IMG/VR virus record: IMGVR_UViG_2531839485_000005
From: a virus
Taxonomy: Duplodnaviria; Heunggongvirae; Uroviricota; Caudoviricetes
DNA: 5,622 nt
Strand: one strand, 5' to 3'
In this document: one piece after another, positions 2,198 through 5,622 of the stretch
Layout: each line of letters opens with the position of its first letter
Numbering within the stretch: position 1 is the first letter of the stretch
The notes under the pieces: generated by a model
Seen by the model: only the letters and a program-made list of their open reading frames with translations
Databases searched by the model: none
Told to the model about the DNA's origin: nothing
Position numbers and translations under genes: made by a program

Positions 2198-2203
2198 TGG
2201 GGT
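2198..2203 (+). promoter_or_regulatory. Shine-Dalgarno-like sequence for stf
   Basis: G-rich TGGGGT lies 5 nt upstream of the ATG at 2208. Confidence 0.45.
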
Positions 2204-2207
2204 GAAT

Positions 2208-5200
2208 ATGGCAGTAAAGATTTCAGGTGTACTGAAAGACGGTGCAGGTAAACCGGTACAGAACTGCACAATCCAGCTGAAAGCAAAACGTAACAGCACC
2301 ACGGTGGTGGCGAACACGGTGGCCTCAGAAAATCCGGATGAAGCCGGGCGTTACAGCATGGACGTTGAGTACGGTCAGTACAGCGTTATTCTGTTGGTGG
2401 AGGGATTCCCGCCGTCACATGCCGGGACCATCACCGTGTATGAAGATTCCACCGGTACGCTGAATGATTTTCTCGGTGCCATGACGGAGGATGATGCCGT
2501 CCGAGGCACTGCGCCGTTTGAACTGATGGTGGAAGAGGTGGCGCGTAACGCGTCCGCGGTGGCACAGAACACGGCAGCCGCGAAGAAGTCAGCCAGCGAT
2601 GCCGGCACATCAGCACGTGAGGCGGCAACCCATGCGACTGATGCTGCAGGCTCAGCACGCGCAGCCAGCACGTCAGCCGGACAGGCCGCGTCGTCGGCTC
2701 AGTCAGCATCTTCCAGCGCAGGAACGGCATCAACAAAGGCCAGTGAAGCATCGAAAAGTGCTGCTGCTGCAGAGTCCTCAAAAAGCGCGGCAGCTACCAG
2801 TGCCGCTGCGGCGAAAACGTCAGAAACGAATGCGGCAGCGTCACAACAATCAGCAGCCACTTCTGCATCCGCCGCGACCACGAAGGCGTCAGAAGCTGCC
2901 ACCTCAGCCCGGGATGCGGCGGCTTCAAAAGAGGCGGCAAAATCATCAGAAACGAACGCATCCTCGAGCGCCAGTAGCGCAGCTTCCTCGGCAACGGCGA
3001 CAGCAAATTCTGCGAAGGCGGCCAAAACGTCCGAGACGAACGCCAGGTCTTCTGAAACGGCAGCGGGACAGAGCGCCTCGGCTGCGGCAGGCTCAAAAAC
3101 AGCGGCTGCGTCGTCTGCCAGTGCCGCGTCAACAAGTGCCGGGCAGGCCTCAGCCAGTGCCACCGCCGCCGGAAAATCGGCAGAAAGCGCCGCATCGTCT
3201 GCTTCAACAGCCACAACGAAGGCTGGCGAAGCCACTGAACAGGCCAGCGCAGCAGCGAGGTCTGCTTCCGCAGCGAAGACATCCGAGACGAACGCGAAAG
3301 CGTCGGAAACCAGCGCAGAATCCTCAAAAACGGCTGCCGCATCGTCCGCCAGTTCGGCGGCGTCATCGGCATCATCGGCGTCTGCTTCAAAAGATGAGGC
3401 GACCAGACAAGCGTCCGCAGCGAAGGGCAGCGCCACGACAGCATCCACGAAGGCGACAGAGGCAGCTGGCAGTGCGACGGCGGCAGCACAGAGCAAAAGT
3501 ACGGCGGAATCCGCGGCAACGCGCGCCGAGACAGCGGCAAAACGGGCAGAGGATATTGCATCCGCCGTGGCGCTTGAGGATGCAAGTACGACGAAAAAGG
3601 GGATAGTACAGCTCAGCAGTGCGACCAACAGTACGTCTGAAACGCTGGCGGCAACGCCAAAGGCAGTAAAATCAGCCTATGACAATGCAGAGAAACGTCT
3701 GCAGAAAGACCAGAACGGCGCTGATATACCCGATAAGGGACGCTTCCTGAACAACATTAACGCGGTCAGTAAAACAGACTTTGCTGATAAGCGTGGTATG
3801 CGTTATGTGCGGGTTAACGCTCCTGCAGGTGCAACATCTGGAAAATATTACCCTGTTGTTGTTATGCGTTCTGCTGGCTCAGTAAGCGAACTGGCATCAA
3901 GGGTCATTATCACCACGGCAACGCGAACCGCAGGCGATCCGATGAATAACTGCGAGTTTAACGGATTTGTTATGCCTGGTGGCTGGACTGACAGGGGGCG
4001 TTATGCTTATGGAATGTTCTGGCAATATCAAAACAATGAACGAGCCATCCACTCAATAATGATGAGTAATAAGGGCGATGATTTGCGCTCTGTGTTCTAT
4101 GTTGATGGCGCTGCTTTCCCTGTTTTTGCGTTTATCGAAGATGGCCTGTCAATATCCGCACCTGGTGCTGATCTCGTTGTTAATGATACGACCTATAAGT
4201 TTGGGGCAACAAATCCGGCGACTGAATGTATCGCGGCGGACGTTATCCTTGATTTTAAGAGTGGGCGTGGTTTTTATGAGTCTCATTCGTTAATCGTTAA
4301 CGATAACTTGTCGTGCAAAAAACTTTTTGCCACAGACGAAATTGTAGCGCGTGGTGGTAATCAGATTCGAATGATAGGTGGGGAGTATGGGGCATTATGG
4401 CGTAATGATGGCGCTAAAACTTACCTGCTGCTTACCAATCAAGGTGATGTTTATGGTGGCTGGAATACATTAAGACCGTTTGCTATTGATAACGCAACCG
4501 GCGAACTGGTTATTGGAACCAAACTGTCCGCAAGTCTGAACGGTAATGCATTAACAGCAACAAAGCTGCAAACGCCAAGACGGGTTTCTGGTGTTGAGTT
4601 TGATGGTTCCAAAGATATTACTTTAACCGCCGCGCATGTGGCTGCTTTTGCCAGAAGGGCAACGGATACATATGCCGATGCGGATGGTGGCGTTCCCTGG
4701 AATGCCGAATCAGGCGCTTATAATGTCACCCGCTCTGGCGACAGCTATATTCTGGTTAACTTCTATACCGGAGTCGGAAGTTGCCGGACCCTGCAGATGA
4801 AGGCGCATTACAGAAATGGTGGTCTGTTCTACCGTTCTTCAAGAGACGGTTATGGTTTTGAGGAAGACTGGGCAGAAGTTTATACCTCGAAAAATCTTCC
4901 ACCAGAAAGCTACCCAGTCGGCGCACCAATCCCGTGGCCATCAGATACCGTTCCGTCTGGTTATGCCCTGATGCAGGGGCAGACTTTTGACAAATCTGCC
5001 TACCCGAAACTTGCAGCCGCTTATCCGTCAGGCGTGATCCCTGATATGCGTGGCTGGACGATTAAGGGCAAGCCCGCCAGTGGTCGTGCCGTATTGTCTC
5101 AGGAACAGGACGGCATAAAATCGCATACCCACAGCGCCAGCGCATCCAGTACTGATTTGGGGACGAAAACCACATCGTCGTTTGATTACGGCACTAAATC

Positions 5201-5600
5201 CACGAATAACACTGGTGCGCATACCCATAGTTTAAGTGGCAGCACGAATGCAGCTGGTAATCACAGCCATAGAGATGGCCGTCGATTTAACCCCAGTGTT
5301 TTTAAAGATACTTATCAATATGGTTATACAAGCTCAGGTCAAAATACCTGGGGTGTACAAGGCTCAGTAGGTATGTCTACGGGGGCGTTAGCTAATACCA
5401 GTACAGATGGTAACCATAGCCACTCACTGTCCGGCACAGCAGCATCTGCAGGTGCACACGCACATACTGTCGGTATTGGTGCACACACGCACTCCGTTGC
5501 GATTGGTTCACATGGACACACCATCACCGTTAACGCTGCTGGTAACGCGGAAAACACCGTCAAAAACATCGCATTTAACTATATTGTGAGGCTTGCATAA
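2208..5600 (+). CDS. stf: Side tail fiber protein (lambda Stf family): conserved N-terminal attachment domain, Ala/Ser-rich repeat shaft, distal receptor-binding region with HxH motifs
   Basis: One continuous frame. I prefer the ATG at 2208 ([26 protein letters not shown]..., the characteristic N-terminus of lambda-type side tail fibers) over the GTG at 2202 used by the ORF track. It contains a long low-complexity shaft, the motif [27 protein letters not shown], and C-terminal HxH repeats. It ends at TAA 5598-5600, overlapping the start of a tfa-like gene. Confidence 0.92.
2610..3575 (+). repeat. In-frame tandem array of 23 degenerate 42-nt (14-codon) repeats inside stf, encoding the Ala/Ser/Thr-rich fiber shaft
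   Basis: Cutting the translation into 14-mers from the codon at 2610 gives units that nearly all begin S-A, S-E or S-K ([14 protein letters not shown] / [14 protein letters not shown] / [14 protein letters not shown] / ... / [14 protein letters not shown] / [14 protein letters not shown]). The K(T/S)SETNA motifs start at 2814, 2940, 3024 and 3276, spaced exactly 3x, 2x and 6x 42 nt apart. Confidence 0.8.
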
Positions 5601-5622
5601 TGGCATTCAGAATGAGTGAACA
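5600..5622 (+). CDS. tfa: Tail fiber assembly chaperone Tfa, N-terminal codons only (3' end outside window)
   Basis: The ATG at 5600-5602 overlaps the stf stop (TAATG) and the frame reads M-A-F-R-M-S-E, which matches the N-terminus I recall for lambdoid Tfa proteins such as E. coli TfaR (MAFRMSEQ...). The position after stf is as in lambda. Only 7 codons are visible. Confidence 0.7.

Follow-up and report, generated by a model that had tools for sequence, protein, structure and literature searches.

The heptad-repeat coiled coils of phage tail fibres have been described in several systems. In Ur-lambda, residues 102-393 of the side tail fibre protein gpStf form a trimeric proximal coiled coil according to cryo-EM/ET combined with AF3 modelling (Yu 2025, PMC12617516). 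The N-terminal segment gpStfN (residues 1-91) forms a dodecameric collar, and residues 92-101 are a flexible linker; high resolution in the lambda map is limited to the first ~120 residues, and the remainder of the lambda rod is an AF3 model fitted into tomograms (PMC12617516). In the prophage collagen-like protein EPclA, the domain known as PCoil was found to be a trimeric coiled coil by SEC-MALLS and CD (Ghosh 2012, PMC3368898). The heptad of PCoil reads Ala-X-X-Ala/Ser-X-X-Ser, and the domain varies in length by multiples of seven (PMC3368898). In phage DT57C, cryo-EM likewise resolved a region of the LtfA protein as a three-helix coiled coil (PDB 8hqz; PMC10713586).

How does the locus studied here compare with these systems? 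The window, that is, the whole 5,622-nt stretch of DNA that was analysed, carries J, lom, stf and the start of tfa, in the order of an Escherichia coli lambdoid prophage tail-fibre locus. The C-terminal domains of J and an Ail/Lom gene (4.8e-125) lie upstream of stf, and tfa follows stf in both the nearest genome and lambda. The J gene in the window is frameshifted, and this prophage may therefore not make virions. The features of the fibre gene are as follows.

2208..5600, + strand: stf (stfR-type side tail fibre) coding sequence, from the ORF list, Pfam and 99.2% identity to an annotated E. coli gene
2208..2486, + strand: N-terminal collar (tail-attachment) domain, aa 3-95, from the match to PDB 9e7m/9mgh
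2487..2525, + strand: linker between collar and rod, with a compensated frameshift patch specific to the window, from comparison with NZ_AP027697 and Ur-lambda
2526..3575, + strand: uninterrupted heptad array, aa 109-458, ~50 x 7 residues, from register listing, autocorrelation, shuffles, Viterbi tracking and AF2
3576..3698, + strand: rod end and conserved junction motif, from the PDB 5yvq alignment and tblastn

The stf product has 1130 aa. Its open reading frame (2202-5600) opens at a GTG at 2202, the start annotated in the nearest genome is the ATG at 2208, and amino acids are numbered here from nt 2202. Pfam matches were obtained to PF08400, PF21446 and PF07484; the first of these (phage_tail_N, or PfN; E = 7e-60, aa 3-134) indicates that the N-terminal collar domain is present, and the collar also matches residues 1-94 of the lambda 'Tail fiber protein' in PDB 9e7m/9mgh (E = 8.7e-48). 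The C-terminus is a T4 gp37-like receptor-binding tip (PDB 2xgf, gp37, E = 3.9e-85, aa 902-1132), and seven HxH motifs occur in the product. The coding sequence is 99.2% identical to one annotated in E. coli genomes as 'prophage tail fiber N-terminal domain-containing protein' or stfR. By these sequence matches and the gene order, 2208..5600 is placed among the side tail fibres of the lambda Stf / StfR family. Between the collar and the rod, three 1-nt deletions relative to NZ_AP027697 (at 2496, 2502 and 2516) convert the linker ARPEALRRFELM into 11 other residues. Because this private frameshift patch lies at the site of PFELM, that sequence could not serve as the N-terminal anchor for the comparison of array lengths, and MVEEV was used in its place. 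At the other end, the junction motif is common to Mu gpS, P2 gpH and P1 fibres; Mu gpS (PDB 5yvq) aligns with aa 441-521, and the tblastn matches of P2-like, Mu/D108 and P1 phages are restricted to query positions 456-497. In this tblastn search against a phage collection, the array was masked as low complexity, and the search was used only for placing anchors. A PDB sequence search found no solved structure covering aa 116-440.

What is the repeating unit of this array? The original prediction described 2610-3575 as 23 units of 14 residues without an indel. This interval is in frame with 2202-5600 (aa 137-458) and does divide exactly, but the unit is a heptad, of which there are ~50, with the consensus S-A-x-x-A-x-x. 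The register can be followed from aa 109/112 (nt 2526/2535) as far as aa 458 (nt 3575), and the array thus begins before 2610; a Viterbi register tracker recovered a single segment of uninterrupted 7-residue periodicity, aa 112-457. In the 46 heptads of 2610-3575, Ser occupies position 1 in 36, Ala position 2 in 33 and Ala position 5 in 44. The period of seven had been taken for a weaker sub-period, yet protein identity at a lag of 7 residues is 0.435 (z = 9.5 against residue shuffles) compared with 0.396 at a lag of 14, and all multiples of 7 residues give z = 7-9.6 in the same shuffles. The 42-nt peak expected to be fundamental in the nucleotide autocorrelation (0.426) is exceeded by that at 21 nt (0.458); the value at 63 nt is 0.44. 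The fundamental unit is therefore 21 nt, or 7 aa, and the repeat is real, far above chance and free of indels.

Four conserved motifs and one micro-repeat lie within the array.

2814..2834, + strand: KTSETNA motif 1, aa 205-211, straddling a heptad boundary
2940..2960, + strand: KSSETNA motif 2, aa 247-253, from motif position; junction partner in a homologue class 16 heptads shorter
3024..3044, + strand: KTSETNA motif 3, aa 275-281, from motif position
3276..3296, + strand: KTSETNA motif 4, aa 359-365, from motif position
3358..3379, + strand: 9-nt micro-tandem repeat CGGCATCAT x 2.4, from Tandem Repeats Finder

The comparison with homologues extends the heptad rule beyond the window. Measured from anchor to anchor, the arrays of homologues differ from that of the window by 0, -15, -16, -29, -31 and -32 heptads, so that the ~50 heptads of the window stand against 35, 34, 21, 19 and 18 in homologues, and of the seven length classes that differ from the window, five do so by an exact multiple of 7. 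Against lambda, the array shows one 315-nt gap (15 x 21). The notion that fibre length is quantised by repeat number thus holds in that homologues differ by whole repeats, but not in its 14-residue unit or its count of 23. Two classes depart from the heptad rule, with remainders of +2 and +6 residues modulo 7, and indels of +/-3 aa occur in a few close homologues, which indicates that a strict register is not absolutely required. Across 63 diverse representatives comprising 1674 heptads, the register breaks only nine times, with no preference for even or odd lags. In the homologue heptads, position 5 is 89% Ala and 0.3% charged, position 1 is 70% Ser and 7% charged, and position 2 is 64% Ala and 27% charged.

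We consider it very probable, from these features taken together, that nt 2526-3575 encode the proximal alpha-helical heptad coiled-coil rod of a lambda-type side tail fibre, the trimeric state being taken from the literature on homologues. AF2, run on the single sequence as a monomer only, predicts one continuous helix over residues 10-404 of 405 (mean pLDDT 72, pTM 0.26), with dips in pLDDT near model residues 165-175 and 293-300; the assignment of the rod as alpha-helical is thus a prediction of AF2. In each chain, the ~50 consecutive heptads would form a single long alpha-helix, and the helices of three chains would pack in parallel as a left-handed trimeric coiled coil whose Ala/Ser core is unusually small. 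The coiled-coil positions would be a for the Ala at position 5, d for the Ser at position 1 and e for the Ala at position 2. These core candidates are small and uncharged, not classically hydrophobic, and a core devoid of Leu, Ile and Val is atypical for coiled coils. The proposal of the original prediction that the Ala-rich Stf shaft might be a trimeric coiled coil is supported by the predicted monomer helix and by the trimers shown or modelled for homologues (PMC12617516, PMC3368898). At 0.148 nm per residue, the rod would be ~52 nm long, and it would act as a rigid spacer between the N-terminal collar, by which the fibre is fixed to the tail, and the beta-structured distal part that ends in the receptor-binding tip. 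Its length would shift in steps of 7 residues (~1 nm), because only whole-heptad insertions or deletions keep the core in register. The periodicity would be maintained by selection on the protein and not by recent duplication of the DNA, with rare length variants arising through in-register recombination between degenerate repeats.

Could the array instead be a 14-residue (42-nt) unit repeated 23 times, with the heptad as its weaker sub-period and homologues differing by multiples of 14? Besides the exact division into 23 x 14, the spacings between the four K(T/S)SETNA motifs, which begin at aa 205, 247, 275 and 359, are 126, 84 and 252 nt, all multiples of 42 as had been claimed, and the homologue classes at -16 and -32, as well as homologue P0112 at -4, contain even numbers of heptads. 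Agreement in parity among four motifs has, however, a chance probability of 1/8, and SET motifs are also found at odd-heptad offsets (aa 284 and 368). A model of two heptads gains no more likelihood over a model of one than heptad-order shuffles do (p = 0.34), and the even-minus-odd lag identity of -0.009 (p = 0.79) shows no preference for even lags in the window; even lags exceed odd lags in only 18 of 48 homologue arrays. The Ser that had been taken to mark the first residue of each 14-mer stands at position 1 in 18 of 23 odd heptads and equally in 18 of 23 even heptads, and column composition is alike in both. A higher-order repeat of two, three or four heptads, or a recent internal duplication, was sought and none was accepted; lags of 7 and 11 heptads were marginally elevated (p = 0.04 and 0.01-0.03, before correction for 15 lags) and are read as noise. 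The existence of odd-heptad length classes (-15, with lambda among them, -29 and -31) refutes 14-residue quantisation, such differences being what the original prediction itself had named as evidence against it. A 14-residue repeat is therefore hardly credible. A different alternative concerns the DNA: the array might be a contingency-type tandem array, prone to recombination, whose copy number is often altered by unequal homologous recombination or slippage, with rapid diversification of fibre length. The whole-repeat differences between length classes are in line with this, at least one length-class junction falls within the repeated K-x-SETNA motifs (homologue P0138, 16 heptads shorter, joins heptad 249 to heptad 361), and rare 3-aa deletions of close homologues map to the 9-nt micro-repeat at 3358-3379, P0024 and P0091 lacking ASS (aa 387-389). 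Against it, Tandem Repeats Finder detected no 21- or 42-nt array in the window, only 11-nt and 9-nt micro-repeats; the longest exact repeat inside the array is 14 nt; the direct-repeat families within it are only 60-82% identical (family D2, to which motif 1 belongs, 71-82%); and synonymous codons are scrambled, with all four Ala and all six Ser codons in use. Array length is identical in 116 of 120 close homologues (at least 88% identity to a 499-aa query, most 91-97%), and no indel separates the array from that of the nearest genome. Degenerate copies and equal lengths argue that this is not a hot recombination array; the description of such arrays as good substrates for unequal recombination was overstated, and a contingency-type locus is decidedly unlikely.

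The protein might also be a low-complexity Ala/Ser/Thr-rich linker, largely disordered or a single helix, with no defined oligomeric packing and with the 7-residue pattern as a by-product. The extreme bias of the composition towards Ala, Ser and Thr, with almost no large hydrophobic residues, would suit such a linker, as would the low pTM and the lack of any PDB match when the AF2 monomer model was searched with Foldseek, although such a lack is expected of one long helix. The register is nevertheless conserved over ~350 residues and through the homologue heptads, and charged residues are kept out of position 5; such strict conservation, together with heptad-quantised indels, points to a packing constraint. 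Furthermore, the homologous PCoil melts cooperatively at 52 C and has a trimeric mass (PMC3368898), and the rod is visible in Ur-lambda tomograms (PMC12617516). We therefore regard an unpacked linker as very unlikely. A beta-structured fibre repeat of the T4 gp12/gp34 type was rejected, given the predicted helix, the residue composition and what has been published on homologues. The coiled-coil rod could be taken further: Ala(a)/Ser(d)/Ala(e) heptads would define a separate class of trimeric coiled coil, thin and with a polar core, that serves as a 'molecular ruler' whose length classes are adapted to the depth of the O-antigen or capsule layer on the host surface; the off-register variants (+2, +6 and +/-3) would then be defined kinks or beta-layers, not defects. 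We consider this extension unlikely.

Three long open reading frames overlap the array.

2599..3606, + strand: 335-aa shadow ORF in frame +1 with respect to stf, not a gene; zero stops in frame
2699..3628, - strand: shadow ORF, 309 aa, not a gene, from codon composition; the phage lambda record lists its equivalent as orf206b
2794..3585, - strand: shadow ORF, 263 aa, not a gene, from codon composition

As the original prediction had proposed, the array accounts for all three. The second codon position of the array is 68% C and 1% T, so that stops are nearly absent in one forward and two reverse frames, and the three are confirmed to be composition artefacts; they should be treated as such in annotation, including the equivalent of lambda orf206b.

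The heptad coiled-coil rod of a lambda-type Stf is real, ordinary and already described (Ghosh 2012; Yu 2025). The region should be annotated as such a rod and not as a 14-residue repeat, and beyond correct annotation its importance is small. Of modest practical value, the heptad rule could guide the design of side tail fibres whose length is set in ~1-nm steps, and the natural classes of 18 to 50 heptads are a ready series for testing the effect of rod length on adsorption.

Where does this rod stand among known systems? The alanine zipper of E. coli Lpp-56 and Ala-rich hymenopteran silk are heptad coiled coils with a core dominated by Ala instead of Leu or Ile; Lpp has only a short Ala stretch, the silk coiled coil is tetrameric, and both are unrelated to Stf, so that this is a resemblance only. 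LtfA, of the L-shaped tail fibre of DT57C/T5 type, shares Ala/Ser/Glu-rich heptads with SETNA-like motifs directly after the tail-attachment segment, and its N-terminal three-helix coiled coil points away from a dodecameric collar (PMC10713586). In contrast to Stf, LtfA is attached through a separate collar protein, LtfC, and its similarity to the array, in an array-only PDB search, is marginal and of low complexity (E = 0.031), so that homology is not established. The PCoil of the E. coli prophage collagen-like proteins EPclA/B also directly follows PfN (PF08400) and consists of Ala/Ser-rich heptads. PCoil is, however, short and followed by a collagen Gly-X-Y triple helix, whereas the coiled coil of the window extends over ~350 residues and is followed by beta-structured fibre domains; collagen-like shafts occur in 20 of 150 representatives carrying the same N-domain. 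The fibre also resembles K-12 Rac StfR and other stfR-annotated fibres, the nearest genomes (98.7-99.2% DNA identity to the window) bearing the stfR-type annotations given above with tfaR/tfaQ downstream; it differs from them in its private linker indels and in the frameshifted J upstream. Finally, lambda Stf has the same gene position (J-lom-stf-tfa), the collar match noted above, 82% identity by tblastn to a 497-aa query region of stf, S-A-x-x-A-x-x heptads in the same register, the junction motif and the gp37-like tip. Relative to lambda Stf, the array of the window is longer by exactly 15 heptads (~15.5 nm), and the distal part of the fibre, in which a T4 gp34-like trimerisation segment lies, is also longer (1130 aa vs 774 aa).

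The window covers distal tail genes from a lambdoid prophage of E. coli:

372-734 and 751-1476, C-terminal part of J, split in two ORFs
1544-2143, lom, with an Ail/Lom match (E = 4.8e-125)
2202-5600, stf ORF of 1132 codons

The product of ORF 2202-5600 carries PF08400 (the prophage tail-fibre N-terminal domain; E = 7e-60), a trimerisation segment like that of T4 gp34, a collar domain and a tip resembling gp37. In complete E. coli genomes, counterparts with 99.2% identity to the gene are annotated as stfR or 'prophage tail fiber N-terminal domain-containing protein', with tfa after them. The counterpart of the annotated start is ATG 2208; residues are counted here from 2202, the ORF-finder convention. 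At 5598-5622, in a TAATG sequence, the stf stop codon TAA (5598-5600) shares one base with the ATG of the tail fibre assembly gene tfa, only 22 nt of which lie inside the window before its end.

What is the repeat unit of the shaft? Nucleotides 2610-3575 are in frame (aa 137-458), in exact register without an indel and divisible into 23 x 14 residues, as had been claimed. The periodicity of this region is far above chance: relative to residue shuffles, protein self-identity gave z = 9.5 at lag 7 and z = 7-9.6 at all further multiples of 7, and it was at or under expectation at other lags. However, the proposed 14-residue (42-nt) unit proved to be 7 residues, because autocorrelation is higher at 21 nt than at 42 nt (nucleotide self-identity 0.458 vs 0.426, with 0.44 at 63 nt and 0.444 at 84 nt) and at lag 7 than at lag 14 (protein self-identity 0.435 vs 0.396). 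When the order of the 46 heptads was shuffled, which keeps the heptad and removes higher order, no 14-residue signal was detected, either in the likelihood gain of a two-heptad model (28.5 vs 26.7 +/- 4.7 in the shuffles, p = 0.34) or in even-minus-odd lag identity (-0.009, p = 0.79). Odd and even heptads do not differ in column composition (Ser fills position 1 in 18/23 of either set); over all 46, position 1 is Ser in 36, position 2 is Ala in 33 and position 5 is Ala in 44. The four K(T/S)SETNA motifs (aa 205, 247, 275 and 359) do lie at multiples of 42 nt, a shared parity with a chance of 1/8 for four motifs, and SET motifs are present at odd-heptad offsets too (aa 284 and 368). The S-A-x-x-A-x-x register opens with MVEEVAR (aa 109, nt 2526) and closes with IASAVAL (aa 458, nt 3575), and a register-tracking Viterbi model returned a single unbroken segment (aa 112-457). 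The array therefore begins upstream of the predicted start at 2610 and comprises about 50 heptads, not 23 units.

The repeat is a feature of the protein level. TRF detected no array of 21 or 42 nt, the direct-repeat families are 60-82% identical, no exact repeat within the array exceeds 14 nt, and each of the four Ala codons and six Ser codons is in use. Codon position 2 in the array is 68% C and 1% T; one other plus-strand frame has no stop across the array, and two minus-strand frames have one each. This bias, which leaves the frames almost stop-free, accounts for three long shadow ORFs, as the original prediction held:

2599-3606, plus strand, shadow ORF
2699-3628, minus strand, shadow ORF
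2794-3585, minus strand, shadow ORF

The phage lambda record (NC_001416, 2998-3618) annotates a 'hypothetical protein', orf206b, that falls wholly within the stf heptad array on the minus strand. It is the lambda equivalent of the minus-strand shadow ORFs and is very likely not a gene but an artefact of composition.

Array length was measured from anchor to anchor (MVEEV to GIVQLS) in 120 close homologues (at least 88% identity to the 499-aa query, most 91-97%). The window's exact length recurred in 116; the other four differed by -28 aa (one), -3 aa (two) and +3 aa (one), the 3-aa changes lying at short tandem duplications, among them a 9-nt micro-repeat at 3358-3379. In a wider search, which used only the N-domain as query against 1.84 billion representatives at 50% identity, two-anchor proteins fell into classes of 0, -15, -16, -29, -31 and -32 heptads relative to the window, and two more classes were off register (-208 and -253 aa, or +2 and +6 modulo 7). 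Of the five non-zero classes that fit whole heptads exactly, three have odd counts (-15, -29 and -31); therefore, quantisation in 14-residue steps is refuted, whereas length quantised by whole repeats is supported, in 7-residue steps. In 63 representatives whose arrays reach at least 70 aa (1674 heptads), the register breaks 9 times, and odd-heptad and even-heptad lags give equal identity (0.393 and 0.398). Rare register-breaking variants comprise shifts of +6 (or -1) and +2 residues in representatives P0144/P0146/P0176 and P0170, and of -3 and +3 residues, that is, stutter/stammer discontinuities, in close homologues P0024, P0091 and P0028. In trimeric coiled coils, inserted stretches of 2 or 6 residues have been reported to give beta-layers (Hartmann et al. 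2016, PMC4786415).

Alignment of lambda stf with the window leaves one array gap, of 315 nt (15 x 21). Heptad listings of two length classes, set against the window, place their junctions between SAAAAKT (aa 200) and SASAAST (aa 305) and between KSSETNA (aa 249) and KTSETNA (aa 361); both resemble the outcome of recombination, in register, between degenerate repeat copies. The array had been considered a good substrate for unequal recombination; given its degenerate DNA copies and the single length of 116/120 homologues, it is not a hot one.

AlphaFold2 (single sequence, monomer; aa 95-499) predicted one unbroken helix (residues 10-404, mean pLDDT 72). A PDB sequence search matched no solved structure to aa 116-440, and Foldseek with the long-helix model gave zero matches. 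In pooled homologue heptads, charged residues make up 0.3% at position 5, 7% at position 1 and 27% at position 2, from which we infer a core with position 5 (Ala) as a, position 1 (Ser) as d and position 2 (Ala) as e. The expected Ala-rich trimeric coiled-coil shaft is supported, by the predicted helix of the monomer and, for the trimeric state, by published homologues. The T4 gp37 needle binds seven iron ions via HxH motifs. Seven such motifs (HTH, HTH, HSH, HSH, HAH, HTH, HGH) occur at 5124-5519 (Stf aa 975-1106), and the Stf C-terminal tip that carries them matches gp37 (PDB 2xgf, E = 3.9e-85), which implies a putative gp37/OmpC-type receptor-binding tip.

Several differences separate the window from its nearest complete genome, NZ_AP027697. 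Within the J region (699-751), 2 nt (GA) are missing after position 699, and because of this loss J is frameshifted and split; the gene, which encodes the central tail fibre, has probably become a pseudogene, with sequencing error as the alternative. In lom, a locally rearranged or divergent segment (1757-1780; +6, +4 and -10 nt, net change zero) leaves Lom otherwise intact at 199 aa. In the stf linker (2450-2517, aa 84-107), 3 nt are missing after 2450 in a deletion private to the window, and single bases are missing at 2496, 2502 and 2516, with the frame regained after about 20 nt; these losses change EDSRPGT to EDSTGT and ARPEALRRFELM to a different 11-residue stretch. This patch is absent from lambda and from every homologous protein inspected at this site, and sequencing error is again an alternative source. 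If the patch is genuine, its position inside or adjoining the flexible linker of Ur-lambda may be the reason for its tolerance.

The feature is genuine, and reading it broadly as an Ala-rich trimeric coiled-coil shaft of quantised length is correct; its repeat unit had been mis-parsed. A shaft of this kind, heptads and length steps included, is known already from lambda Stf and related prophage fibres, so its interest is low. Lambda Stf appeared among long prokaryotic coiled-coil proteins in 2005 (Rose et al. 2005, PMC1322226). In Ur-lambda gpStf, gpStfN (1-91) is followed by the flexible linker (92-101), a trimeric proximal coiled coil (102-393), a hinge and a distal part (Yu et al. 2025, PMC12617516). 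The heptads of DT57C LtfA (PDB 8hqz), a three-helix coiled coil leaving a dodecameric collar (PMC10713586), resemble those of the window (E = 0.031). In E. coli prophage collagen-like tail-fibre proteins, the same N-terminal domain (PfN) is followed by PCoil, an Ala/Ser-rich segment that SEC-MALLS and CD showed to be a trimeric coiled coil, with a seven-residue periodicity, 'Ala-X-X-Ala/Ser-X-X-Ser', and length differences in multiples of seven (Ghosh et al. 2012, PMC3368898). Of 150 representatives with the Stf N-domain, 20 (including P0152, P0157, P0179, P0215, P0217 and P0230) carry collagen-like stretches of up to 48 Gly-X-Y triplets, straight after that domain or after a short heptad segment; therefore, one anchor domain is fused to two kinds of trimeric rod, as that study also found.
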